Below are positions 9,402 to 55,254 of a DNA stretch of 55,493 nt, one piece after another. The notes beneath the pieces were generated by a model, which ran no database searches, was not told the DNA's origin, and saw only the letters and a list, made by a program, of their open reading frames with translations. Source of the DNA: a virus. Lineage: Duplodnaviria > Caudoviricetes. Positions within the stretch are counted from its first letter, which is position 1, and every line of letters starts with the position of its first letter. The position numbers and the translations under genes were made by a program. Location of the stretch: positions 1-55,493 of the IMG/VR virus record IMGVR_UViG_3300032266_000647. One strand, 5' to 3'.

Positions 9402-9443
9402 AGCGTACCCGTATTCGGATCGCGTGTCAACCGAAAACGGATA
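9402..9443 (-). promoter_or_regulatory. Leftward sigma70 promoter with two operators
   Basis: TTGACA(9430-9425)-17-TACGCT(9407-9402); operators TACCCGTATTCGGATC 9406-9421 and CAACCGAAAACGGATA 9428-9443. Confidence 0.8.
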
Positions 9444-9666: not shown

Positions 9667-9667
9667 T

Positions 9668-11036: not shown

Positions 11037-11050
11037 TTTTCGGGCGTGCG

Positions 11051-11077: not shown

Positions 11078-11385
11078 CAGCGACGGTCGATAGGGATGAT
11101 CTGCGCGCAGCGCGACGCATCGGCCGTCATGTCGGCCAGGCGCGTAGTCACCGCATCGAGCGCGCCGAGGATGATCTGCGCGTGTTCCGGCTCAACCGCG
11201 ACGGCGCTGGTGCGCACCTGTAGATCGGCGCTTACTGCAATGTAAATGGCCGCGACCATCGGCGGATCCGATGCGGCCTGCTCGATGTGCCAGTGCCGGA
11301 TGCTGGCTATGCGATCGGGGTGGGGGCGCGGTGTCAGCGCGTCAAGCGCGCGGACGTTTGCGGGGGCGCTGGTGCGTTTTTTCAT
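11077..11385 (-). CDS. Hypothetical protein co-transcribed with the repressor
   Basis: ORF between cI and the terminator. Confidence 0.6.
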   Translation of the reverse strand: MKKRTSAPANVRALDALTPRPHPDRIASIRHWHIEQAASDPPMVAAIYIAVSADLQVRTSAVAVEPEHAQIILGALDAVTTRLADMTADASRCAQIIPIDRR

Positions 11386-11824
11386 GGCCGGTGGCGTTCT
11401 GCGTTGGGTCGGTCGTCGGCCGCCGGGCAGATGCGCGCGCCGCTGCCGCAGCCATTAACGTCGGCACCGGCTTGCGCTCCTCGAAGTCCAGCCGCTTGGG
11501 GGCGGGAGCATGACTCTTTGGGGCGGTGGCCGACAACTCAATGTAGTGCAGCACGCGGGCCTTGTCTTCCGGATCGAGCCGCGCCCAGGCCGACAGTAGC
11601 TGCGCGTCGCCGTCATCGAGTAGCAGCTCCACCGGGGAAACCCGGAAGGCCGCGGCCAGCGCATCTACGGAATCAACCGTCGCGCCTGCCTGCTGGGTGA
11701 GGATCCGCTGCACGGTCGCCTGGCCGACGCCGGCGCGGGAGGCCACTTTCGTCTGCGTGTTCAGGTCGATCCGATCGTCCATCAGCGCGCGTAGGCGGAT
11801 GGCAAGCGTAGCTCTGAGTTTCAT
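11342..11824 (-). CDS. cI: CI-like XRE HTH repressor without an S24 peptidase domain
   Basis: TQTKVASRAGVGQATVQRIL...TVDSVDALAAAFRVSPVELL; divergent from cro across an operator cluster. Confidence 0.85.
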   Translation of the reverse strand: MKLRATLAIRLRALMDDRIDLNTQTKVASRAGVGQATVQRILTQQAGATVDSVDALAAAFRVSPVELLLDDGDAQLLSAWARLDPEDKARVLHYIELSATAPKSHAPAPKRLDFEERKPVPTLMAAAAARASARRPTTDPTQNATGHEKTHQRPRKRPRA

Positions 11825-11857
11825 GAGGTTCTCCGGCGTTGCGGCCCGGCATTGATG

Positions 11858-11914: not shown

Positions 11915-11921
11915 GACGGCC

Positions 11922-38683: not shown

Positions 38684-38712
38684 GACCGGCGTTTCGTTCG
38701 GTCAGGGTGGCC

Positions 38713-41700: not shown

Positions 41701-44700
41701 CCGGAGTCGTCCGGCACGCTGGGCATTCCGCGCGCGCAGATGCCCCAGGTAAAGGTGAGCGATCGGCTGGAGCTGCTGCGCTGGCTGGGCGAGCGAGGTA
41801 TTACGAACGAGCGCGCCGAGGTGGCGGCCGACACGTTGCGGCCGACGCAAGCGGAGTTCTCGCCGGCCAAGGTGGCGCGCTGGAACAACAGCGGGTCGGG
41901 CGATCGCTCCGTGCTGGTGTCGTCCGACGGTTACATCCTCGATGGGCACCACCAATGGCTTGCCGCGCGTGCCGCTGACGAGCCTGTGTCTGTCGTGCGG
42001 CTTGATGCGCCGATTCGCGGCCTGCTCGATGCCGTCAACAAGTTCCCGAAGACGCAGCGCTCGCCCGGCGCCAACGTGATCGACCTGGCGCAACTTCGCG
42101 CCGCCGCAGCGCAGGACTTCAACGACGCGCTGGCCGATCTGGCGGCGATCGCCTCCACGAACACGCGCGCGGCGCTGATGCCGGAGGACACGCCGAACCT
42201 GATGCCGACGCTGGTCAAGCTGTTCGGCGCGGCAATCCGCATGGTGGGCACGGACTTGAAGCGGGCAACCCGCTGGGTGAAGGATCAACTGAAGGCCGAC
42301 CCGCAGTTCAAGAAGGTCTGGAACCGGATCGCGGACGAGACGTATCGCAAGGCGGCGATGCAGGCGCTCGAAGGGATGGACGCGCCGGCCCAGGGCGGCC
42401 TGTTCGATTCGCCGGCCGTCGCGACTCAGGCTGTGCAGGGCGGGCTGTTCGACGCCGTGCCGGAGCAACCCGCGAAGGCGGCCGACGGCAAGCGGGCGAC
42501 GGTGGTTGCAAGGACGCTGGAAAAGGCGCCGGCTGTCGCCACGATCGTCATCGACGGTCAGACCCACGACCTGGACGCGCCTGACTTTGGCGCGGATCCC
42601 TGGCCGCGCACGCTGCCGGACGACTCGCCGCTGCTGCGCGAAACGAACAACCTGGCCGACGACTCGGATGTGACTTATGGCGGCGAAACGATGACCCGTG
42701 CTCAAATGCGCGCCCGCATCGTTGACGCACATTTCGAGGGGCTGCGGCCGGCGCCAGCGAGTCGCAAGCCGATCGTCTACATCATGGGGGGCGGTGGCGC
42801 GAGCGGCAAGGGCACGATCAAAAAGCGCCTGATTGCCGAGGGGCGCATGGACGCATCGGGCGCCGTGAACCTCGATCCCGACGAGATCAAGGTCGAGCAC
42901 ATTCCAGAGTACAAACAGATCGTTGCGGCGGGCGATTCGCGTGCCGCCGCGGTCGTGCATGAGGAAAGTTCCGGCATTGCCGCAACCGTGCGGTCGCGCG
43001 CGATCGTGGATCGCTTTGACCTGGTGCTGGACGTGACCCTGGGCGATCAGGGCAAGGGCGAAAAGCTGCTGCGCACCCTGAAGGATGCGGGCTACGAGGT
43101 TCGGCTGTACGGCGTGACGACGAACCCGCTGGTGTCGATTGTGCGGGCCATCAAGCGCGCCAAGGGTTCGGGCCGCTACGTGCCGATCAACCATCTGCTG
43201 CAAGCGCACAAGGGATTCAATGCCGCCTTTGAAAGCTACGCGGCCATTGCCGACGAGGCGCTGCTGTTTGAAAACAGCGGAGAATCCCCGCAGATGCTCG
43301 CCAGCGCAAGCGCAGGCGTTGCACTGAAAACCGAAAACGGATACAATATTGTTGCCGAAAGGAGCAAACTCAATGAACGTGCGAAAACTCTGCGCGATGT
43401 CAGCCGTGGAGAGGAACAAGGCGCTCGCCGCGATGAGTCTGGCCGAGGCAATGGAGTACCAGGCGGGGATCGAGGCGCTGGCCAACGAGCTGATGGACAA
43501 GGCCAAGAAGACCCCGGCCGAGCGGGAGATGCTGGACTTCTGCAACGAGGACGGCGCCTGGGAGGCGAACCGGACGGTGCGCGAGGCGCGGGCCAAGGAA
43601 CGCAAGGCAGCGAGCAAGGCGGCGTAAATGCAAACGCACAACCTGGTCAAAGCGGCAATCAAGGACAAGGCGCCGGCCCTGTATCGGCAACTCAGCGCAA
43701 GCGGCGAGCTGAATCAGTACGCAACGGATCTCGCGGACGAGATCAACGCGCAGGTGGTGACGCTGACGCAGGAACAGCGGACCAGGGAGGGCTGGGACAA
43801 GCTCGGCCCGATGGCGTGCGCGGCCAGAATGAAAACGGCAATGAGCCTGAACAACGAGCTGGTGCTGGCGCAGATGCTGGAGTTCCCGCAGGACGAGACA
43901 TCCCCGTCAAGTCCGGACGCAACTACCGATTCGGCCCCGATGACCTGACCTACGCGGGGACGTGGCTCCAGAAAGCCACGGCCAACGTCGAGGCCGTCGA
44001 GCTGCTCAAAGCGCTCGAAAAGGAAGGCCGCCAGGCCACGCGCGAGGAACAGCAAAAACTCGCGCAGTTCATCGGCTGGGGCGCATCCGAGATCGCCAAT
44101 TCGATCTTTGGCGACAAAATCAAGAAGAAAGAGGCGGCGGTGCGCGCATGGCAGCGCGTGCTGGCGGCGCGCGCCGAGGGCTTGACGCGCCTCGATCGCC
44201 GCGCAAACGACTACTGGACGATCGCTCAACCGCTGATCGAGGCCAAGTCGATGCGCTACGGCGACGATCTGTACCTGACCGACCTGACTGCCTCGAAGTT
44301 CAATGTGTCCGGCTCCGATGTGAAGTACCTGGAGCTGCGCGATCGGCTGGCGGGCGCGCTGACCAAGGAGGAGTTTGCCGAGGCGTCGCGCTCGACCCAG
44401 TACGCGCACTACACCAGCAGGGCGATCGTGCGCGCGATGTGGGCGGCGATGGAGCGCATGGGCTTCAAGGGCGGCACGGTGCTGGAGCCGGGCGCCGGCA
44501 TTGGCATCTTCCAGGGGTTGATGCCCGAGGCGATCGCGGCCAACAGCGCATACACCGGCATCGAGTTCGATTCGGTGACGGGCGGCATCCTGAAACAGTT
44601 GATGCCCGACGAGCGGATCCTGGTGGAGTCGTTCGTCGATTCGCGGCTGCCCAAGGGCTTCTACGACGTGGCCATCGGCAATCCGCCGTTCTCGGGCACG

Positions 44701-47700
44701 AAGATCCTCGGAGATCCGGAGTACGCGAAGCGGGCATTCAGCCTGCACGACTACTTCTTTGCCAAGTCGATCGACCGCGTGAAGCCGGGCGGCCTGGTGA
44801 TGTACGTGACCAGCCGCTACACGATGGACAAGCTGGACGACAAGGCGCGCGCTTACCTGAACGAGCGCGCCGACCTGGTGGGCGCGATCCGGCTGCCGCA
44901 AACGGCGTTCCAGGAAAACGCCGGCACCGAGGTCGTGACCGATGTCATCTTCCTGCGCAAGAAAGTCGCGGGCGAGACGTGGGACGGCGGCCAGGCATGG
45001 GCAAAATCGGTGCCGATGACGGTCGGCGGCGCCTCGTTCCCGATCAACGAGTATTTCCACGCGCACCCGGACATGGTGCTGGGGTCGCACTCCGACACCG
45101 GCAAGATGCACGCCACCGCGGAGCCGCAATACACGGTGATCCCGCGCAAGGGCGACATCGAGGCGCACTTTGCCGCCGCCGTGGCCACGCTGCCCGAGGG
45201 GATCTACAAGGCTGCGCGCGGATCGGCCGCCGAGGCCGCGAAGGTGCGCGAGATTGATTTCAACCCGAAGGCGAAGAAGGAGGGTAACTACTACGTCACG
45301 GACGCTGGCGTGCTGATGGTGCGCGAGGGCGGGGTGGGCCAGCGCGTCGAGTTGCGCAACCCGAAGGACGTGGAGCTGATTAAGGACTTCGTGCCGCTGC
45401 GCGATGCGTTGAAGCAGGCGCACTACGACCAGCTCAACAACCTGGACTGGCGCACCAGCCTGACGGCGCTGGGCACGGCCTATGAGAAGTTCGTCAAGAA
45501 GCATGGCCAGGTCAATCAGTTCACCTTGCGGGTCAAGAAGACGCAGGAGGTTGACCCGGACACCGGCGAGAAGTTCGTCGATGAGTCGATGGTGCGCAAC
45601 TTCACGCTGCTGTCCAAGCTGAAAGACGACCCGGACGTGACGCTGGTCGCCGCACTGGAGGAGATCAACGACGACACCGGCCAGATCAAGCCCAGCGCAT
45701 TCCTGAGCGAGCGCGTGCTGGGCAAGCCGGCCGATGCGCGCGTCAACAGCCCGATGGACGCGCTGCTGTCGTCGCTGAACGACATTGGTCATGTGGACAT
45801 CGACCTGATTGCGCAGCGCGTGGGCCTGGCGCCGGCCGAGACGATTGCCGAGCTGGGCACGGCGATCTATGACGACCCGGAGGCCGGCTGGGTGATGGCC
45901 GACGAGTACATGTCGGGCAACGTCAAGCGCAAGCTGAACCTGGCGCGCGAGTCCGCAAAGTCGGACAAGCGCTACGAGCGCAACGTGATCGCGCTGGAGG
46001 CGGTGCAGCCGGCGGCGCGGCAACCGTCGCAGATCAACATCGGCCTGGGCATGAACTGGATCCCCGGCGAGGTCTATGCCGACTTCGTGCGCGAGCTGGC
46101 TGGCGTGCGCGCGACGGTGGCGTGGAATCAGGCGACGAAGCAGTGGATCGTGACCGAACAGGCGGGCGGCAGCACGTTGCGGGCCACGGCTGACTGGGGC
46201 ACGAACCGGCGCAACATCACGGAGCTGCTGGAGCATGGTCTGACGGGCCGGCCGATCCAGATTACCGAGAAGACGAGCGACGGCAAGACGATCACGGCCA
46301 CGGCCGCGATCGAGGCGGCCAACCTGAAACTGGAAGCGATCAAAGAGCGGTTCAAGGCGTGGGTGTGGGAGAACCCCGAGCGCACCGACAAGCTGGTCAA
46401 GCTGTTCAACGATCAGTTCAACACCACGGTTCCGCGGTCGTTCGACGGTCGGCACCTGACGCTGCCCGGCACGTCCAAGACGTTTGACGTGTTCCCGCAC
46501 GTCAAGCGCGGCGCCTGGCGGATCATCCAGAAGGGCAACACCTACCTGGCGCACGCCGTCGGATCGGGCAAGACGTTCCAGATGGTCATCAGCGCGATGG
46601 AGCAGAAGCGGCTGGGCTTGATTAAGAAGCCGATGGTGGTCGTGCCGAACCACATGCTTCAGCAATTCGCGCATGAGTGGCAGATGCTTTACCCGGCCGC
46701 GCGCCTGATGGTGGCCGACGAAAACAACTTCCACACCGACAACCGCCGCCGCTTTGTCTCGCGCGTGGCGCTGTCCGACCTGGATGGCGTGGTCATCACG
46801 CACAGCGCGTTCAAGCTGCTCGACCTGGATCCGGCGTTCAAGCGCGGGGCGATCGAGCAACAACTGGAGGTGATGCGCGCCTCGCTGGAGCAGGCCGAGG
46901 AGGCGGACGGCAAGGGCGGTCGCAAGTCGCCGCGCATCAAGCAGATCGAGAAGCAGATCGAGAACATGGAGCAAAAGCTGGAGGAGGCCATGTCCTCGGA
47001 GGGCAAGGATCGCAACGTGCGATTCGACGAGCTGGGCGTCGATTTCCTGTACGTTGATGAGGCGCACGCTTACCGCAAGCTGGATTTCATCACCACGCGC
47101 CAGGTCAAGGGACTGTCGCCGGCCGGATCGGCGATGTCGTTCGATCTGTGGATGAAGGCGCGCTACCTGGACGAGAAGAAGCCGGGCCGATCGCTGGTGA
47201 TGGCCAGCGGCACGCCGGTCACGAACACGCTGGCCGAGCTGTATACGGTGCAGAAGTTCATGGCGCCGCAGACCCTCGAAGACCGGAACATCAGCGACTT
47301 TGACTCCTGGGCGGCGATGTTCGGCCGCGAGCGCACCGAGCTGGAGCCAAACGCCGCCGGCAAGTACGAGCCGGTGACGCGGTTCTCGAAGTTCGTCAAC
47401 GTGCCGGAGCTGATTCAGTCCTTCCGCGACTTTGCCGACGTGCTGACAGCCGACAACCTGGCCGCGCTGCTGGGCGACGCGCGGCCGAAGGTCGAGGGCG
47501 GCCAGCGCCAGATGATCGTGACGCCGAAGACCGATGAGTACAAGGTCTACCAGCGCGAGCTGGCCCAGCGCGTGAAGATCTCGAAGGCATGGAAGCCGAG
47601 CAAGGATCAGCCAAACAATCCCGACCCGATGATCCGCATCATTGGCGACGGCCGACTGGCCGCGATCGACATGCGGTTCGTGGATCCGAAGGCCGAACGC

Positions 47701-50700
47701 GACCCGGACTCGAAGCTGAACAAGATGATCGACGACGTGATCCGCGTCTTCAAAGAGACGGCGGACATGGAGTTCCGTGGGCCGGATAAGAAGGGGCCGG
47801 ACGGCAAGAAGATCAAGGGTTCTGGCGACATTGAGCCGAACAAAGGCGCGGCCATGATGGTCTTCTCCGACCTGGGGTTCGGTGCCGGTGTTACGGAAAG
47901 CCGGGGGTTCAACGCGCGCGCCTGGTTCACCAAGCGCCTGCGCGATGCGGGCGTGCCGGCCGATCAGGTGGCTTTCATGTCGGACTACAAGAAGTCGGCC
48001 GACAAGCTCAAGCTGTTCAAGGATGTCAACGCGGGCCGCGTGCGGATCCTGATTGGCAGCTCGAAGAACATGGGCACCGGCGTCAACGCGCAGCAACGCC
48101 TGAAAGCGCTGTTCCACCTGGATAGCCCCTGGTTCCCGGCGGATCTGGAGCAGCGCGAGGGCCGCATCGTGCGGCAGGGCAACAAGAACCTGCTGGTGCA
48201 GATCTTTGCCTACGCGACCAAGGGCACCTACGACGAAAACATGTGGAAGATGCTCGCCACGAAGCAGTATTTCATCGACCAGGCGATGAGTGGCGACGAC
48301 AACCTGCGCGAGATCGAGGATCTGGACAGTCAAAGCCAGTTCGACATCGCCGCCGGCCTGGTGGCCGAGGATCCGCGCATCTTGCAACTGGCGGGCGTGC
48401 GCGCCGAGATCGACAAGCTGAACCGGTTGTACCAGGCGCACGAAGATCAGCGCGCGCGCTTTCGCCAGCAGTATCAGATGGCGCAGATGGTGGTGGAGTC
48501 CACCGAGCGGCGACTGCCTGAGGCGGTGCAGGCGGCCGAGAAGGTGGTCGATCTGTCCGGAGACAAGTTCCGCGCGAAGGCGATGGGGCGGTCGTTCGAC
48601 GAGCGCGCGAAGTGGGGCGAGTCGTTGATCGCCGCGCTGAAAGACCTGACCGCGAAAGTCGAGACGAAGAAGACCAAGGTCGGAGAGATTTCGGGGTTCC
48701 CGGTCTACTTCATTGGTGAGAACGTGGCCGGCACGTACAGCGGGCGCATTGTGCTGGATGTGCCTAGCCCGGCAACGCTGGTGCTGTCCACCGAGACGGA
48801 TCTGTTCAGCGCGATGGGCCTGGCGATGCGTGCGCAAAATGCCGTGGCCGACGTGGGGCGCCAGCCGGCGCGGATGCGCGAGCGGATGGTCGAGTCACGC
48901 GCGCAGATGGATGCCGTGGCAACGCGCCTGGAGGCGGTATTCCCGATGGCGGGGATGCTGGCCGACAAGCGCAAGGAGGCGACCGAGCTGGAGGCGGCGA
49001 TCGAGGCCGACTCGAAGGAGCGCGACTTCTGGGTCGAGCGCAAGGACACTCGCACCGGCCATACGGTGAAGGCGACCAGCGCGGCCGATGCGATCGAGCG
49101 CGCGGTGAAGACCAACGGCGGAACGCCTGACGACTGGACGGCGATCGAGGGAGGCAAGCCGGAAATCCGGCTGTCGCGGCGCGGGATGGTGGCGGCCGAG
49201 CCGGGCGCCGCCTACAATGCGGGGTATGAAAACGACCTTTTCGGCAACCCGGTACAAGCCCCGCCCGTCGAGCTTGCACGCGCAAAGCGACCTGGTGCCG
49301 CCGGAAACCGGGACGTTCAGCCCGCGCCCGCCGTACTTGGCGATACGCAAGCCCCAGCCGGCGACTACTACGTCCGAACCGTCGTCGGAAAAGTCAGCGA
49401 CCGAAAACTCGGCGCCCCCCGGATCCTGAATGCCGAGGACGCGGCCCAGGCGACCGCGTACCTGTACAAGTCCGCGGTCGAGCGCTTCGACGCGATCGTC
49501 ACCGACAAAGACGGCAAGCCGCTGGCCGTCGTCGGCGGCTTCCGGGGCGCGCTGACGCAAACGTCCGTCTATCCGGCCACCGTGATGGGCGAGGCGATTC
49601 GTGTGCCGGGCGCCGCGAAGATCTGGTTCAGCCACAATCACCCGTCGGGCCTGGCCGTGTTGTCGCGTGCCGACGAGATGCTTTACCAGGCGATGGCCGA
49701 CGTGTTTAACGGCAGCGGCATCGAGCCGATGGGGATCCTGGTTGTTGCTGGACGTCGCTACGAGGCCGCCTTTTCAAATGGGGATCGGGTATCGGGGGGT
49801 GTGAAGGCGCCCGATGCCGCGGGCGCGACCGTGCCCGTCATCGAGCGCAACCTGGAAGACAACCGCGACGATGCCGCCCGGCTCGGCTCGCAGATCAGCA
49901 GCCCGCAGACCGCCAAGAAAACCGCCAAGACGATGTATGACGGCGCCAAAGCGCCGGGGCTGATGCTGCTGGACGCGCAAAATGTTCCGGCGGCGTGGGT
50001 GCCGTTGCCGACGAACACCCTGGGCCGGCTGCGCAACACCGGCGGCCTGGCCGCGCTGTATCGCGCGGTCAGTGAAAGCAACGCGGGGGCGGCGATCATC
50101 GTTCACGCCGGCGAGATGGATGCGCCCGTCGAGCAGAACATCGCAGCCGCGCTGAACAAGCTGGACGTGCGCACGCTGGACGCGATCAACGTCAAGACCG
50201 GCAAGTCGGCCGCCGAGAGCGGGCTGCACCTTGGTCAAGGCCCGGTGCTGTCGCGCGGCACCGCGCCGTCGGCCGGCGGCATGGACATCAAGGCGCTGCA
50301 AGCGGTGCGCGACCGGGTGGCGGCGAAGATGCCGAACATGCCGCGCGTGCATGTGCTGGCCGATCCCGGCAAGGCACCGAAGGCGCTGCGCGAATACATC
50401 ATCCGGCAAGACGCCTGGGGCGATGTCGAGGGCGCAATGCACAACGGCGAGCTGTACCTGTTCGCCTCTGGCCTGTCCGACGCGCTGCGCGCCGAGCATG
50501 TGCTGGCCGAGCATGAGGCCGCGCACGTCGGCCTGCGCGCGGTGCTGGGCGACAAGCTGGGCACCGCGATGAATTTGATCTACGCGCAGAACCCGAAGGT
50601 TCGCGCGGCGGTGTCCGACCTCCAGCGGCGCGGCAAGCTGTCGCGCGCCGAAGCGGTGGAGGAGGCGATCGTGGACATCCCAAGCGCCGAGCTTGCGAAG

Positions 50701-53700
50701 CTGGCAGGCTGGCGCCAGGTGGTCGTGATGGCGCGCGACTGGCTGGCCGACCACGGTTTCACGCGCATGGCGCAGAAGCTGACCGATTGGCTGGATGGCT
50801 CGCTGAGCGACATCGAGCGCGCGGATCTGTTCGTCGCGGAGCTGGTGCGCGCTGCGCGGGACTACGTGGCCGGTCAGCGCGCGGGCCGCCCGGCCAGCGT
50901 GCCGAGCGACATTCGACTGTCAACAACGCTGGCCGATGACATCGACAAGCAAGAGCGTTGGTTGCAGTCCGAGGCGCGCGCCCGCGGGTTCAAGGACATC
51001 GAGGATCTGCTGGCGAAGGACTACCCGCTGTTCGAGAAGCTGGCGGCGCTGTGGCGCAAGAAGAACCCGGCCGAGTCGCTGCTGTCGCGCAATTTCGGGC
51101 TGCCGCTGGTGTCGGCGCAGAGCGAGCTGGACGCGGCGATTGCGGAGGCTGGCGCACAGTTGCAGTCGGCTATGGATGCAAAGCGAGCGGGCCAGCGTGT
51201 CGTGCTTGGGCGGTCGCCTCATGTCCTGAGCATGGTGGCCAGCGCTTCGATGGGGAACCCGCGCCCAATGATGATCGAGCCGCAACTGTTGAACAAGATC
51301 GTTGCGCCACCAGGAACCCGCGTGTCAGAGGACGCGGGCAAGCACTACGGGGATTTGGCCGGCGTCTCTGGCGAGGAATTGGCGCGTGCCATGTATCGCC
51401 CGGCTGCGGTTATCGAAGATACGTCTCAGCAGGGCAACCTGATGATCGTCACCAACATCCTGACGCCCAGTGGGCCGATTGTTGTTTTCGTAGACGTGAA
51501 TGCTCGCGCGTTGGTCAACGGACTGGAAACGCCCGTCGTCATGGCAAAGTCGATCTATGCGCGCAGGGGCGCTCAAATCGCAGACTGGATCAACGGGAAA
51601 ACCCCGGATCGCGTGACGCACTACATCGACCAGGCGCAGATCGGTGAGTCAGTTACGGGACGACCAAACCCTGAAAACGCAAACCCCGCCTTTAAGGGGC
51701 GGGGTTCCGTGCCAGCCTTGGGGACTCTCAACGCCTCCCGGCTCAATGCCGTTTCAGCTACTTTCCCGATCTCCGACAACGCAAATGTACCCGGATTCGG
51801 ATCTGCTGTCAACAGCAACTATCGCGGACTGGCAACGATCGAAGCTGGATTGCAGAAGCTGTTGACTGGCCGCGGACTCAAGCCGGGACTGCGGCCCGCA
51901 AAGACGTATCAGCACCTTCTGGCCTGGATTGGCAAGCACTACAAGGGGGATGTTGCCGATCGGCCGATGTTCTCTCGCGCACCGGCCGTATCGTCCGAGG
52001 CGTTCCGCAAGTGGTTCGGTGACAGCAAGGTGGTCGATGCCGAGGGCAAGCCGCTGGTGGTCTATCACGGCACTGGTGCGACCTTCAACGCCTTCAGCCT
52101 TGACAAGGCCAAAGACGGTGCGCATTGGTTCACGCCGAACGAGCAGCACGCCGGCAGCTTCGGCGCCAACATCAAGACCGTCTATCTGAGGATCGAGAAC
52201 CCGCTGGAAATATCGCAGGACGATCTCGATGCGGAGTGGGACAAGGCGCACCCGGACGGCGAGCAGGATGACCGAAATCTGTTGCCGCGCGACTTTGTTG
52301 AAGTGTTTGTCAAGCGAGCGCGAGCGCAAGGCAAGGACGGCCTAATCATCCGGGACATGGGCGACCGCGATATTCAGTCCGATATGTACCTGCCGCTGCG
52401 CCCCGAGCAGATCAAGTCGGCCATCGGTAACGACGGCACGTTCGACCCGACGAACCCCGACATCCGCATGAGCCGGGCGCCGGCCGCACCGGCACGGAAG
52501 ACCGCGGCCGAGCGCGCCGACGAGATCATCAGCCGTCCGGCCGGCAGCCGGGCGCCGCTGGACGCGATGGCGCGCGGCCTGGCGCGCGTGACCGGAATCG
52601 ACCGCCTGACGGGCGCGATCTACCGGCGTGCGGGCTACCTGCTGGATCGGTACACGCCCGAGCAGGTGAAGGCCGGCGTGATCTCCGACTACGGCGTGCC
52701 CGAGGCGGTGATCGACCAGCGCGCGATGCTCCAGGGCCGTCAGCGCGTGCAGCTCCGGAAGGCCGGCCAGTTGGTCGAGAAGCTGTCCACCCTGACGCGC
52801 GCCGAAAGCCGCGTGGCCTACGAGTGGATGAACATGACCGGCGACGAGGATCCGAGCGCCTACGTGTCGATGATGCAGGGGCTTCCCGAGGAATCGGTGA
52901 AGGTGCTGCAAGACGTTCAGAAGATGATCGACCAGCTCTCGCAAGAAGCGGTGGCACTCGGCCAGCTCGACCCGGACACGTTCAAGCGCAACCGATTTGC
53001 CTACCTGCGTCGCAGCTACGCAAAGCATGTGCTGGAGCAGACGGCGGGCGAGAAGGCAAAGCGCCAGCGCGTGATCTCGATCCTGGGCGATCAGTACCGG
53101 GGCCGCGGCATCAGCGAGTCGGCAGCGATGAAGCAGATGCGCGCGATCGCGCCGGCGTGGTGGAACCGCAAGCTGGTCGCCGGCAAGGCCGACACCGCGC
53201 TGAAAGGCGAGAAGTTCGTGCGGTTGGAGCGGCGCGCCGCCACCGGCGCCGGTACGGCGCCCCTGCCTGGCGTGCAGTCGCAGCGCCCGCAGGGCAAGCT
53301 GCTGGAAGTGGCGTACTGGCCGGCGGCTGATGTTGCCAACATGCCCGCGAAGTATCGGACGGAGTGGGCGCAGGCCGGCACCTTCGAGGTGCGCGACGTG
53401 AAGGGTGAGAACGTCATCCTGTGGCGCGACTACACGAAGGACGAGCGCGAGTCGATGGGCGAGATCGACGAGGCGCGCTTTGCGATCGCCCGCACGCTGC
53501 ACGGCATGATTCACGATGTCGAAGTCGGCCGCTATCTGGACTGGCTGGCGCGCACGCAGGCGAAGCTGGAGGGCCAGTCGATCCCCGGCACCGTGGTCGA
53601 GGCGTCCGAGCGTTACCGCGACACGTTCAAGCCCGACGAGTGGGTCAAGGTGCCCGACACCAAGATCCCCGGTACGTCGGTGCCCAAGTACGGCAAGCTG

Positions 53701-55254
53701 GCGGGCCGCTACCTGCCGGGGCCGATCTGGAACGATCTGCGCCAGGTCGTCAACGGGCAATTCAAGCCGCTGGGCGAGACGTACTCGAAGATCCTGAGCG
53801 CCTGGAAGACTTCCAAGACCGCGCTGTCGCCGGCCGTCCACATGAACAACGTCATGAGCAACTTCGTGATGGCGGATTGGCACGACGTAGGTGCGACGCA
53901 CATTGCGAAGGCGCTGCGGATCCTGCTGGCGGCCAACGAGGGCAAGGGCGCGGGCGTGCTGGCCGCGGCGGGCCGCGCAGCCGGCCGGGCGGGCATTGCC
54001 GACCGTGATGCCGCGCAAGCGATCGTCAACCGCTACAAGGACAGCGGCGGCGACATCGGCGCCTGGGCGACGCAAGAGATCTCGCGCGACCAGCTCGATC
54101 CGCTGCTGGCGTCGCTGGAGGCCGAGCTGGCGGTCAGCGCCGGCCAGTCGGTGCAGGCTCAGGTGGGCGTGATGTCCGCGCTCCAGCACGCGCTGATGCT
54201 GCGCTTCCCGTCGGCCTGGGAAGCGTTCAAGGGGTCGAAGCCTGGCAAGGTGGTGGTCAACGAGGCGACCTCGATGATCGACCTGTATCAATCCGAGGAC
54301 GACGTGTTCCGGCTGGCGGCGTGGCTGAAAGCGAAGGAGGAGGGCCGCAACGACCTGGAGGCCGGCAAGGTGTCGCGCAAGTCGTTCCTGGACTACCACG
54401 TCAACGCGCCGTGGATTCAGGCGATGCGCCAGACGGGTTGGCCGTTCATCGCCTTCACGTACCGGGCCGTGCCGATGTTCCTGCACACGCTGGGCAACAA
54501 GCCGCACAAGGTCTTTAAGCTGATGGCCGTGGCTGGCGCGCTCAACGCCCTGGGCGGGCTGCTGGCCGGCGGGGGCGACGACGAGCGCGCACTGCTGCCG
54601 GAGGAGAAGGCCGGTCGGATTTGGGGCATGGTGCCGAAGCTGATCCGGATGCCGTGGAACGACGCCAACGGCTCGCCGGTGTACCTGGACATCCGCCGGT
54701 TCATCCCGGTGGGCGACGTGCTGGACGTGGGGCAGGGGCACTCGGCAATCCCGGTGCTGCCTGGCCTGCAACCGGGCGGCCCGCTGGCGCTGATTGCCGA
54801 GCTGGTGGTCAACCGCTCGATGTTCACCGGCAAGGCAATCACGCTCGAGACCGACACGGCGACCGAGAAGGCCGGCAAGGTGATCGACTACCTCTACAAA
54901 GCCTTCGCGCCGAACCTGCTGGGTTTGCCCGGCACCTACGCGACGACAGCGACGTTCGATTCGGCGCAAGGAAAGACCGATGCCTTTGGCCGCGAGCAGT
55001 CGGTCGCCCAGGCGGTCGCCTCATCGTTCGGCATCAAGGTCGGCAGCTACCCGGCCGACGTGCTGCGTCTGAATCTCCAGCGCAAGGCCCAGTCCGAGAT
55101 CATGGAGATCGACCGCGTGATTACCGGCCTGAAGCGCCAGCATCAGACCAACAGGATCGACGCCGACGAGCTGGCCGAGAAAGTGCGCGACCAGCAGGTG
55201 AAGAAGACGAAGGTGATGAAGGAGCTGAACGACAAGCTGAACGCCGCGCGGTGA
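38713..55254 (+). CDS. Giant polyvalent DarB-like internal virion protein: DdrB-like ParB, ParB-like, Zeta-like P-loop kinase, N6-adenine MTase, SNF2 helicase, JAB/RadC, HExxH peptidase, MuF-C-like nuclease, ADP-ribosyltransferase-like and C-terminal LPD-type region
   Basis: LQPRDR/VESGNAR ~40500-40660; ILDGHHQW ~41935; GGGASGKGT 42790-42816; LEPGAGIG ~44482; GNPPF ~44677; HAVGSGKT ~46552; VDEAH ~47053; QREGRIVRQGN ~48151; HNHPSG 49633-49650; HEAAH 50512-50526; LGRSP..KH..P..SIY 51205-51560; FRKWFGDSKVVD...YHGT 52003-52074. Confidence 0.92.
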   Translation: MSKLEDFLDGKLPSAGSSQIEDFLAGRPIKPTKPAAPSSGATAGDWLHAGSQAVGEGILAAQGGIGTFIQAPGAYLESALQGGAAALNRGVSKLTGGIVPIDEDVQKTARDFSRMAAATRKENVAAEDGTWLNPATTAARMGLGLQLDANQRISQIEAENRERNPELVRQQQAISDAEGFVGTLSALKDNPLGFGYTLARSAPDMIAGLGIARGAASATMREGAVAAEKAAASVAAAGGSAAAQKAAADAAMQQAQRSAVGSASVAGTAAEGVSSSYNGREGVYREVMNLPEKTLETAPRFREVLAEAGGDRARAREILANELADQATLLSGASTMAGSMLTRRLFKGDTTAEAVAGVKPLTLRQVGRNVLEEGFEEGAQGLGEDAAQFVAASQADPSKKFDVGGTLAQNIAAGAVMGAGGTGGKYAYERARDLSQPTPPGAAPTPTSAPDISPTAPAAPPAAAAPPAAPMATAGADDEAARKLMAPVNMTALDRVPEIDTEAGQLTARLAELNDPAGTYGQMFDQERAEIASRRTALQQERDAITAGWPKATPGAPASFSTETGARLAGQYALMDADELTTSHDVNLREDPRYPKDLQPRDRTRAASEIQVSGIVSKLDPARLGVSADSANGAPIVGADGLVESGNARTIALKRVYQANGQKAEDYKAFLRANASQFGLTPEAVDGMAKPVLVRVRQTPVNRAEFARQANVTTVQRMSPSEQALSDAKRLTTLEGLNPDDEGNFTSSSDFIRQFMSILPATEQSDMLEADGKLSTAGYRRIQNAVLAKAYGDSPTLRRMTESLDDNLRNVSKALVRVAPMIADARERMGVGTLHQADIAPDLVSAVEGLSALKDKGWRVADELAQGDLTGPKYSAEAGELLTFLSDNIRSPRRMAEFVQRYYEALAASGDPSQASMFGDAPAPSRMSLIEQARGGINAGQADRGGAQAAAPGGQQSEGAQRGGDGARGDAGGSTGDTRLSRAANRGAEDADWVAFPESSGTLGIPRAQMPQVKVSDRLELLRWLGERGITNERAEVAADTLRPTQAEFSPAKVARWNNSGSGDRSVLVSSDGYILDGHHQWLAARAADEPVSVVRLDAPIRGLLDAVNKFPKTQRSPGANVIDLAQLRAAAAQDFNDALADLAAIASTNTRAALMPEDTPNLMPTLVKLFGAAIRMVGTDLKRATRWVKDQLKADPQFKKVWNRIADETYRKAAMQALEGMDAPAQGGLFDSPAVATQAVQGGLFDAVPEQPAKAADGKRATVVARTLEKAPAVATIVIDGQTHDLDAPDFGADPWPRTLPDDSPLLRETNNLADDSDVTYGGETMTRAQMRARIVDAHFEGLRPAPASRKPIVYIMGGGGASGKGTIKKRLIAEGRMDASGAVNLDPDEIKVEHIPEYKQIVAAGDSRAAAVVHEESSGIAATVRSRAIVDRFDLVLDVTLGDQGKGEKLLRTLKDAGYEVRLYGVTTNPLVSIVRAIKRAKGSGRYVPINHLLQAHKGFNAAFESYAAIADEALLFENSGESPQMLASASAGVALKTENGYNIVAERSKLNERAKTLRDVSRGEEQGARRDESGRGNGVPGGDRGAGQRADGQGQEDPGRAGDAGLLQRGRRLGGEPDGARGAGQGTQGSEQGGVNANAQPGQSGNQGQGAGPVSATQRKRRAESVRNGSRGRDQRAGGDADAGTADQGGLGQARPDGVRGQNENGNEPEQRAGAGADAGVPAGRDIPVKSGRNYRFGPDDLTYAGTWLQKATANVEAVELLKALEKEGRQATREEQQKLAQFIGWGASEIANSIFGDKIKKKEAAVRAWQRVLAARAEGLTRLDRRANDYWTIAQPLIEAKSMRYGDDLYLTDLTASKFNVSGSDVKYLELRDRLAGALTKEEFAEASRSTQYAHYTSRAIVRAMWAAMERMGFKGGTVLEPGAGIGIFQGLMPEAIAANSAYTGIEFDSVTGGILKQLMPDERILVESFVDSRLPKGFYDVAIGNPPFSGTKILGDPEYAKRAFSLHDYFFAKSIDRVKPGGLVMYVTSRYTMDKLDDKARAYLNERADLVGAIRLPQTAFQENAGTEVVTDVIFLRKKVAGETWDGGQAWAKSVPMTVGGASFPINEYFHAHPDMVLGSHSDTGKMHATAEPQYTVIPRKGDIEAHFAAAVATLPEGIYKAARGSAAEAAKVREIDFNPKAKKEGNYYVTDAGVLMVREGGVGQRVELRNPKDVELIKDFVPLRDALKQAHYDQLNNLDWRTSLTALGTAYEKFVKKHGQVNQFTLRVKKTQEVDPDTGEKFVDESMVRNFTLLSKLKDDPDVTLVAALEEINDDTGQIKPSAFLSERVLGKPADARVNSPMDALLSSLNDIGHVDIDLIAQRVGLAPAETIAELGTAIYDDPEAGWVMADEYMSGNVKRKLNLARESAKSDKRYERNVIALEAVQPAARQPSQINIGLGMNWIPGEVYADFVRELAGVRATVAWNQATKQWIVTEQAGGSTLRATADWGTNRRNITELLEHGLTGRPIQITEKTSDGKTITATAAIEAANLKLEAIKERFKAWVWENPERTDKLVKLFNDQFNTTVPRSFDGRHLTLPGTSKTFDVFPHVKRGAWRIIQKGNTYLAHAVGSGKTFQMVISAMEQKRLGLIKKPMVVVPNHMLQQFAHEWQMLYPAARLMVADENNFHTDNRRRFVSRVALSDLDGVVITHSAFKLLDLDPAFKRGAIEQQLEVMRASLEQAEEADGKGGRKSPRIKQIEKQIENMEQKLEEAMSSEGKDRNVRFDELGVDFLYVDEAHAYRKLDFITTRQVKGLSPAGSAMSFDLWMKARYLDEKKPGRSLVMASGTPVTNTLAELYTVQKFMAPQTLEDRNISDFDSWAAMFGRERTELEPNAAGKYEPVTRFSKFVNVPELIQSFRDFADVLTADNLAALLGDARPKVEGGQRQMIVTPKTDEYKVYQRELAQRVKISKAWKPSKDQPNNPDPMIRIIGDGRLAAIDMRFVDPKAERDPDSKLNKMIDDVIRVFKETADMEFRGPDKKGPDGKKIKGSGDIEPNKGAAMMVFSDLGFGAGVTESRGFNARAWFTKRLRDAGVPADQVAFMSDYKKSADKLKLFKDVNAGRVRILIGSSKNMGTGVNAQQRLKALFHLDSPWFPADLEQREGRIVRQGNKNLLVQIFAYATKGTYDENMWKMLATKQYFIDQAMSGDDNLREIEDLDSQSQFDIAAGLVAEDPRILQLAGVRAEIDKLNRLYQAHEDQRARFRQQYQMAQMVVESTERRLPEAVQAAEKVVDLSGDKFRAKAMGRSFDERAKWGESLIAALKDLTAKVETKKTKVGEISGFPVYFIGENVAGTYSGRIVLDVPSPATLVLSTETDLFSAMGLAMRAQNAVADVGRQPARMRERMVESRAQMDAVATRLEAVFPMAGMLADKRKEATELEAAIEADSKERDFWVERKDTRTGHTVKATSAADAIERAVKTNGGTPDDWTAIEGGKPEIRLSRRGMVAAEPGAAYNAGYENDLFGNPVQAPPVELARAKRPGAAGNRDVQPAPAVLGDTQAPAGDYYVRTVVGKVSDRKLGAPRILNAEDAAQATAYLYKSAVERFDAIVTDKDGKPLAVVGGFRGALTQTSVYPATVMGEAIRVPGAAKIWFSHNHPSGLAVLSRADEMLYQAMADVFNGSGIEPMGILVVAGRRYEAAFSNGDRVSGGVKAPDAAGATVPVIERNLEDNRDDAARLGSQISSPQTAKKTAKTMYDGAKAPGLMLLDAQNVPAAWVPLPTNTLGRLRNTGGLAALYRAVSESNAGAAIIVHAGEMDAPVEQNIAAALNKLDVRTLDAINVKTGKSAAESGLHLGQGPVLSRGTAPSAGGMDIKALQAVRDRVAAKMPNMPRVHVLADPGKAPKALREYIIRQDAWGDVEGAMHNGELYLFASGLSDALRAEHVLAEHEAAHVGLRAVLGDKLGTAMNLIYAQNPKVRAAVSDLQRRGKLSRAEAVEEAIVDIPSAELAKLAGWRQVVVMARDWLADHGFTRMAQKLTDWLDGSLSDIERADLFVAELVRAARDYVAGQRAGRPASVPSDIRLSTTLADDIDKQERWLQSEARARGFKDIEDLLAKDYPLFEKLAALWRKKNPAESLLSRNFGLPLVSAQSELDAAIAEAGAQLQSAMDAKRAGQRVVLGRSPHVLSMVASASMGNPRPMMIEPQLLNKIVAPPGTRVSEDAGKHYGDLAGVSGEELARAMYRPAAVIEDTSQQGNLMIVTNILTPSGPIVVFVDVNARALVNGLETPVVMAKSIYARRGAQIADWINGKTPDRVTHYIDQAQIGESVTGRPNPENANPAFKGRGSVPALGTLNASRLNAVSATFPISDNANVPGFGSAVNSNYRGLATIEAGLQKLLTGRGLKPGLRPAKTYQHLLAWIGKHYKGDVADRPMFSRAPAVSSEAFRKWFGDSKVVDAEGKPLVVYHGTGATFNAFSLDKAKDGAHWFTPNEQHAGSFGANIKTVYLRIENPLEISQDDLDAEWDKAHPDGEQDDRNLLPRDFVEVFVKRARAQGKDGLIIRDMGDRDIQSDMYLPLRPEQIKSAIGNDGTFDPTNPDIRMSRAPAAPARKTAAERADEIISRPAGSRAPLDAMARGLARVTGIDRLTGAIYRRAGYLLDRYTPEQVKAGVISDYGVPEAVIDQRAMLQGRQRVQLRKAGQLVEKLSTLTRAESRVAYEWMNMTGDEDPSAYVSMMQGLPEESVKVLQDVQKMIDQLSQEAVALGQLDPDTFKRNRFAYLRRSYAKHVLEQTAGEKAKRQRVISILGDQYRGRGISESAAMKQMRAIAPAWWNRKLVAGKADTALKGEKFVRLERRAATGAGTAPLPGVQSQRPQGKLLEVAYWPAADVANMPAKYRTEWAQAGTFEVRDVKGENVILWRDYTKDERESMGEIDEARFAIARTLHGMIHDVEVGRYLDWLARTQAKLEGQSIPGTVVEASERYRDTFKPDEWVKVPDTKIPGTSVPKYGKLAGRYLPGPIWNDLRQVVNGQFKPLGETYSKILSAWKTSKTALSPAVHMNNVMSNFVMADWHDVGATHIAKALRILLAANEGKGAGVLAAAGRAAGRAGIADRDAAQAIVNRYKDSGGDIGAWATQEISRDQLDPLLASLEAELAVSAGQSVQAQVGVMSALQHALMLRFPSAWEAFKGSKPGKVVVNEATSMIDLYQSEDDVFRLAAWLKAKEEGRNDLEAGKVSRKSFLDYHVNAPWIQAMRQTGWPFIAFTYRAVPMFLHTLGNKPHKVFKLMAVAGALNALGGLLAGGGDDERALLPEEKAGRIWGMVPKLIRMPWNDANGSPVYLDIRRFIPVGDVLDVGQGHSAIPVLPGLQPGGPLALIAELVVNRSMFTGKAITLETDTATEKAGKVIDYLYKAFAPNLLGLPGTYATTATFDSAQGKTDAFGREQSVAQAVASSFGIKVGSYPADVLRLNLQRKAQSEIMEIDRVITGLKRQHQTNRIDADELAEKVRDQQVKKTKVMKELNDKLNAAR
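41525..41695 (+). CDS. Nested +1-frame ORF (56 aa) within the giant gene
   Basis: GAGGAGG SD at 41513-41519; G/C third-position bias moves to this frame while the giant frame becomes low-complexity G/A/R/Q. Confidence 0.6.
   Translation: MQDKQIEAVRKLLRQVDSNPKVRNAVAMALAAMPEAAPETPDSAAPPIAAPKMPTG
43319..43347 (+). promoter_or_regulatory. Intragenic sigma70 promoter with repressor-type operator
   Basis: TTGCAC-17-TACAAT; operator AAACCGAAAACGGATA 43328-43343, 15 nt identical to 9429-9443. Confidence 0.8.
43373..43627 (+). CDS. Nested +1-frame ORF (84 aa, helical); candidate Zeta antitoxin
   Basis: AAAGGAG SD at 43358-43364; codon bias in this frame; own promoter. Confidence 0.8.
   Translation: MNVRKLCAMSAVERNKALAAMSLAEAMEYQAGIEALANELMDKAKKTPAEREMLDFCNEDGAWEANRTVREARAKERKAASKAA
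43628..43948 (+). CDS. Nested +1-frame ORF (106 aa), TnpV-like
   Basis: TAA-ATG coupled to the previous ORF; AIKDKAPALYRQLSASGELNQY...ELVLAQML resembles the TnpV pattern. Confidence 0.75.
   Translation: MQTHNLVKAAIKDKAPALYRQLSASGELNQYATDLADEINAQVVTLTQEQRTREGWDKLGPMACAARMKTAMSLNNELVLAQMLEFPQDETSPSSPDATTDSAPMT
49226..49429 (+). CDS. Possible nested +1-frame ORF (67 aa)
   Basis: TACAAT 49213-49218 then ATG 7 nt later; local shift in codon bias. Confidence 0.4.
   Translation: MKTTFSATRYKPRPSSLHAQSDLVPPETGTFSPRPPYLAIRKPQPATTTSEPSSEKSATENSAPPGS
51674..51706 (-). terminator. Intrinsic terminator of the antisense RNA
   Basis: Minus strand AACCCCGCC-CCTTAAA-GGCGGGGTT-TGCGTTTT. Confidence 0.7.
51674..51777 (-). 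ncRNA. Putative ~100-nt antisense small RNA inside the giant gene
   Basis: Bounded by a consensus promoter and a terminator; no ORF on this strand. Confidence 0.65.
51784..51812 (-). promoter_or_regulatory. Antisense intragenic promoter with operator
   Basis: TTGACA(51812-51807)-17-TACATT(51789-51784); operator TACCCGGATTCGGATC 51788-51803, 15/16 identical to 9406-9421. Confidence 0.8.

Follow-up and report, generated by a model that had tools for sequence, protein, structure and literature searches.

Giant polyvalent proteins are regarded as multi-tool weapons that phages inject. For such a protein it has to be asked how the phage prevents damage to its own factory cell and how the timing of the giant protein's action is set, and the genome studied here suggests one answer. 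The window, i.e. the whole stretch of DNA that was analysed (55,493 nt), is a complete temperate phage genome of 55.4 kb. Opposite one linker of its giant gene lies a stretch that resembles a complete small-RNA gene, raising the question whether this unit is real and what it might do. The features at the locus are as follows.

38707..55254, plus strand: giant polyvalent protein gene, an open frame of 5515 codons
51376..51636, plus strand: MuF_C-like (PBECR) predicted RNase domain (about residues 4200-4320 of the giant protein), based on sub-threshold Pfam matches, invariant residues and weak fold matches
51679..51792, plus strand: protein linker, residues 126-163 of a modelled 233-residue segment, with pLDDT <50
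52036..52443, plus strand: ART-PolyVal domain, the next domain after the linker
51807..51812, minus strand: -35 hexamer TTGACA; on the plus strand the codons GCT GTC AAC (A-V-N), a conserved protein motif
51787..51803, minus strand: operator GATCCGAATCCGGGTAC in the promoter spacer, core ATCCGAATCCGGGT at 51802-51789, with a twin at 9405-9421
51784..51789, minus strand: -10 hexamer TACATT; read on the plus strand as AAT GTA, both of them rare codons
51674..51777, minus strand: predicted small RNA of about 104 nt, its start placed 7 nt after the -10 hexamer and its end likewise inferred
51672..51706, minus strand: intrinsic-terminator-like hairpin, AACCCCGCC, loop CCTTAAA, GGCGGGGTT, then TGCGTTTTCA
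51668..51813, either strand: island of 97% identity to a 3238-nt contig of run X7

The preliminary description had placed a TTGACA-17-TACATT promoter with an operator in its spacer on the minus strand, within the giant frame. This promoter is present, and the whole unit lies inside 38707-55254. It agrees with the sigma-70 consensus at 10 of 12 positions, including all six of the -35 hexamer, and 51812(-) is the best sigma-70-like site of the genome. When a spacer of 17 and the A2/T6 rule are required, no other site among the 110,926 window positions reaches 10/12. Scanning 50500-53000 for promoters yielded one site compared to 0.3 +/- 0.6 in shuffles, while a generic scan of the whole window returned three promoter-like sites (11030-, 11886+ and 51812-), each of which overlaps a member of the operator family described below.

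The 9-bp terminator proposed for the unit was found as well. Its stem is perfect (51706-51698 with 51690-51682), encloses a 7-nt loop, is followed by the tail TGCGTTTTC and folds with -20.8 kcal/mol, flanking pairs included. Only two strict intrinsic terminators occur in the window, this hairpin among them, and simulated genomes average 0.5. It is located on the same strand as the promoter, 71 nt downstream of the inferred start. The U-tract is broken (TTTGCGTTTT) by a GCG interruption, with 5 T in the 9 nt after the stem.

The predicted small RNA contains no convincing open reading frame. Its body structure is not significant, with a fold z-score of -1.76 and equally good folding in 8 of 200 shuffles; the AGCC/GGCU stem noted earlier appears in the centroid fold only. 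The suggested comparison with known RNA families gave no Rfam match at gathering score in the whole window, and the best matches of a lax search of 50500-53000 had E values of 3.1-4.2. Tandem Repeats Finder returned zero rows for 51000-52500 at score 30, hence no ToxI-like tandem repeats.

All of these elements share their nucleotides with codons of the giant gene. Among 20,000 synonymous recodings, a promoter of at least 10/12 arose in 4, a terminator in 98 and an operator with at most two mismatches in 802 (4%). Moreover, in codon typicality the unit falls into the bottom 1.5% of all 49-codon windows (z about -3.4). Given the rarity of promoter and terminator among the recodings and this low typicality, the sequence of the unit is not accounted for by protein coding together with codon usage. 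The RNA body is located within the segment of the modelled giant protein that has a pLDDT <50, where, judging from the model, protein constraint is weakest. Codon usage is atypical across the entire 51.3-52.0 kb module, and GC3 is low over the whole 51382-51981 stretch; the rare codons may therefore in part be a signal of foreign origin.

The spacer operator connects the unit to other sites of the genome.

9402..9430, minus strand: twin early promoter TTGACA-17-TACGCT with the identical operator, upstream of an unknown gene and of RecT and RecE-like genes
43319..43347, plus strand: third promoter, TTGCAC, 4 nt, AACCGAAAACGGAT, TACAAT, ahead of two +1-frame nested genes that it presumably drives
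43370-43627, plus strand: nested +1-frame gene that follows a Zeta-toxin domain and has the same operator type
11342..11824, minus strand: cI-like HTH repressor gene
11922-12194, plus strand: cro-like gene

The sequence GATCCGAATNCGGGTAC has two exact occurrences, at 9405-9421(-) and 51787-51803(-). In register, 51812-51784 and the early promoter at 9430-9405 have 22 of 26 bases in common, operator included, and local alignment of the two regions gave a 27-nt match with a score of 37 (500 shuffles: mean 16.3, sd 2.2, max 24). The likeness to the 9402-9430 promoter that had been pointed out before is supported. The palindrome family ATCCG-N4-CGGAT counts seven sites against 0.69 expected, a number reached by none of 100 shuffles, and it is also enriched in the related phages G002 and G003 (10 versus 0-1 in the reversed control). 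The sites at 9430(-), 43319(+) and 51812(-) follow a common layout, consisting of the -35 hexamer, 4 nt and a 14-mer whose final T opens the -10 hexamer. Two of the operators, at 43329 and 51789, lie within the giant gene. The cI-like protein encoded at 11342-11824 is likely the operator-binding protein.

The unit was then compared with other sequences. For 51300-52200 no RNA run was listed as a match, and the four runs aligned there consist of DNA contigs. In the X7 contig, which comes from an independent metagenome, the unit is matched with four differences and no gaps, whereas the flanks are unlike the window; the edges of the island coincide with the -35 hexamer and the end of the T-tract. 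The X7 contig is a single one, and a recent recombination patch would look identical. Exact-pattern scans with pieces of the unit (five overall) found no copy in viral contigs (chance 17-mer matches only), no copy in metagenome contigs (nine unrelated hairpins) and nothing in genome contigs.

Among the homologous lineages for which DNA is at hand, two of three others carry an antisense promoter at the same codon register, defined by a -35 hexamer on V-N or F-N codons and a spacer of 17. The conserved V-N codons supply the -35 hexamer for free. In L022 the site reads TTGACA-17-GATACT and is the sole one of at least 8/12 in 7338 positions; in L023 and L025 it reads TTGAAC-17-TAACAT, being the sole such site in 7290 positions of L025 and one of three in L023. 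A -10-like hexamer has a background frequency of 0.0018-0.0035. At that register the promoter is missing from L026 and L027, and the residues of the protein-only homologs P0054, P0016 and P0076 cannot encode a -10 hexamer there; in total it is absent or impossible in four of eight lineages. A terminator-like hairpin is lacking in L023 and is weak, with 6 bp only, in L022, whose spacer sequence occurs just once in its partial record of 32 kb. The search for equivalent promoter-terminator units after MuF-C homologs, as proposed initially, recovered the promoter in two of three other lineages. The RNA body and any terminator are unconserved between lineages. A conserved promoter in combination with a freely diverging RNA body is the pattern that a cis-antisense RNA predicts.

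At E<=1e-3 the surrounding module had no match in any of seven related phage loci, where the downstream flanks extend no more than 2.9-10 kb beyond the nested gene and the module would be expected about 7.7 kb past it; if it is indeed absent from these relatives, it is dispensable for this phage type. Searching phages and plasmids by tblastn gave zero matches and blastn against GenBank phages just short ART-domain matches, while the 9-10 kb region was unmatched by blastn against GenBank phages. A single-protein scan of viral contigs was empty, and a scan of genome contigs with alignment A2 gave one weak partial match that was left out of the analysis.

The explanation we consider best is that the giant gene harbours a genuine small RNA gene that is cis-antisense and gated by the repressor; to this explanation we assign about an even chance. 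At the level of sequence, it is backed by the promoter, operator and terminator, their rarity, the nucleotide-level constraint and the promoter recurrence in homologous modules. The stretch 51812-51674(-) would then be a self-contained small-RNA gene lodged in a disordered linker of a giant virion-protein gene, in which a strong host-type promoter and an intrinsic terminator would delimit an RNA of about 104 nt. With the immunity operator of the phage itself in its spacer, the promoter is expected to be silent in the lysogen; it may fire together with the other early promoters upon infection or induction. The RNA would be perfectly complementary to the giant mRNA directly past the codons of the predicted RNase domain. 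Most likely it would act in cis, by pairing with sense transcripts or by transcription against them, and untimely early expression from the distal, toxin-laden portion of the gene would be cut or silenced. These sense transcripts may include read-through from the co-regulated internal promoter at 43319. Transcription, timing and the cis-antisense effect of the unit are what we infer from this arrangement. Cis-antisense action, listed among the alternatives in the preliminary description, fits the cross-lineage pattern best.

Of the competing explanations, the one that holds up best, though still improbable in our view, assigns no nucleotide-level function to the unit. It would be a by-product of the P-G..A-V-N motif, of a recent lower-GC module with rare codons and of an mRNA hairpin. 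This agrees with the V-N codons dictating the -35 hexamer, with a GC3 of 0.62-0.70 across the 600-nt module and with the lineages in which the promoter is absent or impossible. It leaves unaddressed the joint rarity of promoter and terminator among the recodings, the 27-nt match with the 9430 promoter, the sole 10/12 site adjoining one of two strict terminators in the correct order, and the island edges in X7 that fall at the -35 hexamer and at the T-tract end.

The reading originally put forward was that of an RNA antitoxin or guide for the RNase domain. As an antidote, the small RNA would attach to the neighbouring MuF-C/PBECR RNase domain or act as its decoy, rendering it harmless in the producer or soon after injection. 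MuF-C/PBECR are predicted BECR-fold RNase domains of polyvalent proteins (Iyer et al. 2017, PMC5512222). As in that description, the domain here is a putative BECR RNase domain of a giant protein that is probably packaged in the virion and injected, and its invariant His and Thr may correspond to the active-site layout given there (PMC5512222). Linker-nested genes or RNAs, as predicted here, are not described in the main text of that article, which does not contain the words 'antisense', 'internal promoter' or 'linker' (PMC5512222). The nuclease-like domain noted initially lies just upstream of the unit and has K13-H14 and T118-G119 invariant in its alignment; its matches to Pfam PF18819 (MuF_C), with 21.6 and 25.9 bits, stay below the gathering cut-off of 27.6. 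Three of six aligned homologs match MuF_C at E<=0.01. The domain model consists of helices followed by strands; Foldseek gave no match at E<=0.001, and the top five of VIA-align contained four RNase toxins (a CDI toxin, colicin D twice and BrnT) with weak Z values of 3.5-3.8.

An antidote would be in keeping with the start of the unit about 10 codons past the invariant T-G of the domain, with the antisense promoter accompanying homologous modules in two of three other lineages with DNA and with a parallel in the same gene. The product of the +1-frame gene at 43370-43627 is predicted to bind the preceding Zeta-toxin domain: the modelled complex scored 0.73, the best of three controls 0.00, and the runs had a contact agreement of at least 97% and a partner pLDDT of at least 90. 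The mark used for this binding score is attained in 51 of 78 solved complexes and in 2 of 108 mismatched pairs. The Zeta domain and the nested gene are both missing from all seven relatives. The idea of an RNA antitoxin gains plausibility because a nested protein gene with the same operator type follows Zeta and its product is predicted to bind it. On the other side stand the lack of ToxI-like repeats and an RNA body and terminator that differ between lineages, hard to reconcile with a structured protein-binding RNA. Furthermore, the BECR toxins from the fold search come from entries named as complexes with immunity or inhibitor proteins. In X7 the RNA is 97% identical, yet the flank on the MuF-C side is unlike the window, disfavouring strict co-inheritance of the RNA with the domain sequence. 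A link of the unit to the MuF-C-like module, as proposed in the preliminary description, is supported by the recurring promoter and the atypical codons. Altogether we regard an RNA antidote as unlikely, and we are just as doubtful about the wider notion that every added toxin domain brings a linker-lodged, repressor-switched antidote gene, a +1-frame protein for Zeta and an opposite-strand RNA for the BECR-type RNase.

Two further readings appear still less probable, and we rate them alike. In one, the unit encodes an early small RNA that acts in trans on host (or phage) mRNAs, the tolerant linker merely being a safe lodging. The unit owns a promoter and a terminator, and a 97% island with unlike flanks suggests a constraint on the RNA sequence itself that a pure cis-antisense RNA does not need. 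However, among 44 phage translation-start regions the best duplex had -48.9 kcal/mol versus a shuffle mean minimum of -49.3, and it is left unexplained why other lineages have the promoter at the identical codon register. In the other, 51789 is solely a repressor-binding site, an auxiliary operator for looping with 43329 or for blocking transcription from there, and the likeness to promoter and terminator is incidental. Two operators in the giant gene and the ease with which recodings reach an operator with at most two mismatches would suit this. It does not account for the 6/6 -35 hexamer, the 17-nt spacing, the rare-codon -10 hexamer and the terminator 71 nt downstream, nor for the promoter-like sites of L022 and L023, with a spacer sequence in L022 that does not recur in its partial genome. 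A Csr/Rsm sponge, offered earlier as an alternative and expected to carry numerous GGA motifs largely in the loops of hairpins, was rejected with just four GGA in 104 nt and no CsrA (PF02599) found in the phage, as was an antisense protein gene, with no open frame common to four lineages in the three minus-strand frames past the promoter.

Internal signals in a related type of gene have been predicted before. In the DarB-like giant gene of the Bcep22-like phage JC1, ARNold predicted two terminators, both oriented opposite to the gene (PMC9144972, Table 4). According to the parts of that report available to us, JC1 resembles the phage studied here in being a temperate podovirus with a PAPS reductase, an acetyltransferase and a giant late gene; its terminators are uninterpreted computational matches with no promoter or operator reported, and their sequences are unrelated to the unit (PMC9144972). 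Judged by title and beginning of the abstract, none of the literature matches listed dealt with an antisense RNA in a DarB-like phage gene.

The answer suggested by the genome would consist of regulated genes in the linkers of the giant gene under the immunity repressor, one for an opposite-strand small RNA and two for other-frame proteins. A 'single ORF' of 16.5 kb can conceal several genes that standard gene callers miss, and the sequence of hypervariable linkers may in part be due to what the opposite strand or another frame encodes. Should the reading of one antidote per toxin be true, this would be the first case of a BECR-fold RNase with an RNA as its antitoxin, the RNA gene being embedded in the frame of the toxin itself, and an RNA fired right after injection would serve as a timer that ends toxin action.

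In type III toxin-antitoxin systems (ToxIN), an RNA is the antitoxin of an endoRNase, and ToxI consists of same-strand tandem repeats processed by the toxin. The antidote reading shares with ToxIN an RNA encoded beside the RNase that it neutralises; in contrast, the unit here has no repeats, lies on the opposite strand and neighbours a predicted RNase of BECR-like fold. The sar RNA of P22, c4 of P1 and type I antisense RNAs (sok) are small RNAs restraining harmful or untimely gene products, and the proposed role of the unit, a small phage or plasmid antisense RNA holding back a product, is alike. Unlike here, their targets are short mRNAs or leaders, and type I toxins are small membrane peptides; to our knowledge, none of these RNAs is nested in a giant multidomain gene. 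A comparable layout is that of OOP RNA of phage lambda, a small cis-antisense RNA against cII with its own promoter and terminator. Like OOP, the unit would specify a short RNA of a temperate phage that has a host-type promoter and a terminator to itself, runs antisense to part of a coding gene and affects the product of that gene; at the sequence level both signals were indeed found opposite the coding gene. While OOP opposes a small regulator gene, the unit lies where a virion-protein gene of 5515 codons encodes a disordered linker, beside a predicted RNase domain, and, unlike OOP, it carries an immunity operator in its promoter spacer.

The sequence at 51812-51674 on the minus strand opens with TTGACA (51812-51807), a 17-nt spacer and TACATT (51789-51784), the sole spacer-17 site scoring at least 10/12 among 110,926 genome positions. 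Across the entire window, a generic promoter scan returned three promoter-like sites, 11030(-), 11886(+) and 51812(-). A hairpin 71 nt past the inferred RNA start consists of a perfect 9-bp GC-rich stem and a 7-nt loop followed by TGCGTTTTC (-20.8 kcal/mol). Under a strict terminator rule (8 bp or more of perfect stem, then five or more T within 10 nt) two terminators are present in the genome, compared with a mean of 0.5 over 30 simulated genomes; the second lies directly after the major head gene. The fold of the RNA body is not unusual (z -1.76; 8/200 shuffles were equally stable) and an Rfam search yielded no family match for the predicted RNA. The elements listed in the preliminary description, i.e. 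promoter, spacer operator, a layout like that of the promoter at 9430 and the 9-bp terminator, were confirmed in the sequence and exceed chance expectation by far. The unit very probably has a function at the DNA or RNA level, with a putative transcript and role.

The window ends in 123 terminal bases that are identical at both extremities, and its IMG/VR entry records direct terminal repeats and a completeness rating of complete. Besides the features below, the gene layout comprises RecT and RecE-like genes, terminase, portal, major head protein, internal virion proteins, tail fibre, an acyltransferase and a PAPS reductase.

74-1132, minus strand: integrase
11342-11824, minus strand: cI-like HTH repressor, facing the cro-like gene
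11922-12194, plus strand: cro-like gene, facing the cI-like repressor
38707-55254: giant gene, an uninterrupted frame of 5515 codons
43370-43627, plus strand: first nested gene, in the +1 frame, behind a ribosome-binding site and promoter 43319
43628-43948, plus strand: second nested gene, in the +1 frame, behind a ribosome-binding site and promoter 43319

The giant frame carries the Pfam domains ddrB-ParB, Zeta toxin, Eco57I-type methylase, helicase, RadC, a weak MuF_C and ART-PolyVal, and its product is a polyvalent protein as defined by Iyer et al. 2017 (PMC5512222). That paper names MuF-C 'PBECR' and describes it as a predicted BECR-fold RNase.

There are exactly two copies of the 17-mer GATCCGAATNCGGGTAC, one in the unit and the other in promoter 9430-9402, which occupies the intergenic space ahead of the recombination genes. 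A 27-nt alignment of these regions, extending across the -35 element, scores 37 (maximum 24 in 500 shuffles), and both 17-mer copies are variants of the palindrome ATCCG-N4-CGGAT. This family has seven sites in the window (9407, 9429, 9652, 11022, 11895, 43329 and 51789) against 0.69 expected, a number attained in 0/100 shuffles. Since the sites at 11022 and 11895 coincide with the two divergent promoters on either side of the repressor region and that at 51789 lies in the unit, all three scanned promoter-like sites overlap an operator. The promoters 9430(-), 43319(+) and 51812(-) share one architecture: -35, 4 nt, and a 14-mer whose final T opens the -10. Two related phages, G002 and G003, are enriched for this palindrome family as well (10 sites versus 0-1 for a reversed control). 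The operator is genuine and this phage's own. Its position between -35 and -10 implies repression, and promoter 51812(-) would be expected to stay off in the lysogen and to become active together with the early promoters.

The immunity region itself is legible from the operator sites at 9400-9670 and 11000-11920. An 18-bp perfect palindrome, ATATCCGTCAACGGATAT, sits on the leftward promoter 11030, the rightward promoter 11886 has one site in its spacer, the 9430 promoter has two sites 22 bp apart, and one site precedes a small membrane-protein gene at 9640.

The unit covers the codons for residues 4321-4369 in the giant protein. In a modelled segment of 233 residues, pLDDT falls below 50 at residues 126-163, corresponding to nt 51679-51792 and nearly coincident with the RNA body. 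Three features recur in distant homologs (27-33% identity): a MuF_C-like domain in which K-H and T-G are invariant, a linker whose length varies, and a P-G..[PA]-[VLI]-N motif with W-I-G after it. Read on the opposite strand, the A-V-N codons spell the -35, which therefore comes partly at no cost. The codons under promoter and operator are nearly all rare (GCA, AAT, GTA, CCC, GGA, GGA, TCT, GCT; relative use 0.02-0.15), placing the unit in the bottom 1.5% of the giant gene's 49-codon windows for codon typicality. Among 20,000 synonymous versions of the unit's peptide drawn from genome codon usage, an antisense promoter of at least 10/12 arose in 4 and of at least 9/12 in 62, an operator with at most two mismatches in 802 and a terminator in 98. 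Protein coding does not account for the unit's sequence. The rare-codon signal may partly reflect a foreign origin of the module, because GC3 is flat and low (0.62-0.70 versus 0.85 gene-wide) throughout 51382-51981, which spans the MuF_C-like domain, linker and W-I-G motif and appears to be a cassette gained recently. An exact 19-nt inverted match (51625-51643(+) versus 25707-25725(-); E 3.2e-4 for a 301-nt query) links the coding end of the MuF_C-like domain, outside the predicted RNA, to the major head protein gene.

Positions 49500-53500 of the window were compared with contigs from four DNA runs. A single contig of the DNA metagenome run X7 (3238 nt, depth 8.9) matches exactly 51668-51813 with four differences and no gaps, its edges lying 1 base outside the -35 and about 6 bases beyond the T-tract. 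On the side seen, the contig is unlike the window beyond the match; 20/20 X7 records fall only partly within 49500-53500. With the match so confined, DNA conservation is best where the protein is least conserved; in this one contig, that pattern fits selection acting on the DNA or RNA, or a patch exchanged very recently by recombination. Visual inspection of the 30 letters preceding the island shows no stop in the window's frame and a faint resemblance to the RNase domain's end, which hints weakly at a homologous gene in X7.

DNA of three further lineages of the module was taken from IMG/VR and aligned with the motif's N codon as the anchor. Lineage L022 has TTGACA-17-GATACT (10/12) and L023/L025 has TTGAAC-17-TAACAT (8/12), both with offset and spacer identical to the window's; L026/L027, which is without the long linker, has no promoter at the aligned register. 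These are the sole sites of at least 8/12 in L022 (7338 positions) and L025 (7290 positions), and one of three in L023. As -10-like hexamers occur at 0.0018-0.0035 per position, a match in two of three lineages at a fixed register has a chance of about 1e-5. The residues beneath the -10 differ by lineage (N-V, S-I, M-L), so the shared site is not inherited protein sequence. Judging from their residues, the protein-only homologs P0054, P0016 and P0076 would be unable to place a -10 at that register. Of the equivalent promoter-terminator units sought behind MuF-C homologs, the promoter recurred in two of the three lineages with DNA and the terminator did not (no terminator-like hairpin in L023, a weak 6-bp one in L022). 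Conservation of the promoter alongside a freely varying RNA body is expected of a cis-antisense RNA, whose target is encoded by the very same DNA. The module had no match at E<=1e-3 in 7/7 loci of the most similar phages; these end 2.9-10 kb past the nested gene and the module is located some 7.7 kb beyond that gene, so its absence is firm only where the downstream flank is sufficiently long.

At 43357-43956 the codon-position GC pattern (GC3 periodicity) switches to the +1 frame. The two genes here, whose promoter 43319 bears an operator, are real genes nested in the giant ORF. The second has 28 homologs (48-96% identity), 17 of the same 106-residue length, and in all seven related loci its homolog lies inside a larger open frame, in the +1 register; the enclosing frame spans 13.5-15 kb in five and is ended by the locus edge in L031 (9.7 kb) and L035 (6.4 kb). 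A like palindrome and -10 precede the homolog in L029, L030, L031 and L032. The giant frame stayed open across the cassette in only 0.9% of 5,000 synonymous recodings, hence both frames look selected.

The first nested gene comes after the Zeta-toxin domain, and both are absent from 7/7 relatives. Its product is predicted to bind this domain like an epsilon-type antitoxin: the binding score was 0.73 (best of three controls 0.00), against a mark attained by 51/78 solved complexes and 2/108 mismatched pairs, with runs agreeing in at least 97% of contacts and a partner pLDDT of at least 90. As epsilon/zeta complexes have already been solved, this pass may show likeness only; the first nested gene had no sequence match in the PDB. 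The nested pair under an operator promoter indicates that the phage lodges repressor-gated genes in linkers of its giant gene, at least one directly behind a toxin domain.

The seven related loci, L029-L035 (IMG/VR records G002-G006 and two more), belong to a phage family with genomes of some 57-60 kb and giant open frames, sharing ParB (5/7), the nested gene (7/7) and the methylase (7/7) and differing in inserted toxin domains. Elsewhere in the window's giant frame, phase-1 GC exceeds phase-3 GC at 49207-49431 and 49732-49881(+); both stretches fall in the interval from helicase to RadC and rank with the most atypical windows for codon usage. Besides the one at 43357-43956, a second shift of the codon-position GC pattern out of the giant frame, at 41482-41706(+), overlaps a low-complexity protein stretch and a 64-codon ORF, 41501-41695 (GC3 0.86), which gave nothing beyond weak HEAT-repeat matches in Pfam and may be a third nested gene.

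We give about even chances to the unit being a repressor-gated, early, cis-antisense small RNA. The RNA would pair with sense transcripts of the giant gene, or its transcription would run against them, including read-through from the co-regulated sense promoter 43319, 8.4 kb upstream; untimely expression of the distal toxin-laden part would thereby be restrained. That the unit is a by-product without function appears unlikely. Somewhat less likely still, the RNA could be an antidote of the RNase domain, as the preliminary description had proposed: the parallel of Zeta and its nested gene and the linkage of unit to module speak for this, but repeats are lacking, the RNA body is unconserved and the domain-side flank differs in X7. 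A trans-acting RNA, for which no phage target stands out, is improbable, and an operator only is equally so.

The nearest known counterparts of a cis-antisense RNA of this kind are the OOP RNA of phage lambda and similar phage antisense RNAs. Unlike these, the unit lies within a giant polyvalent gene, in the part that codes for a disordered linker, carries the immunity operator in its promoter spacer and is placed behind a predicted RNase domain. The terms 'antisense', 'internal promoter' and 'linker' are absent from the main text of the polyvalent-protein paper (PMC5512222), and among the papers listed on antisense RNA, DarB and phage none was on point. For the Bcep22-like phage JC1, a paper (PMC9144972) gives two predicted opposite-direction terminators inside a DarB-like giant gene, without comment.
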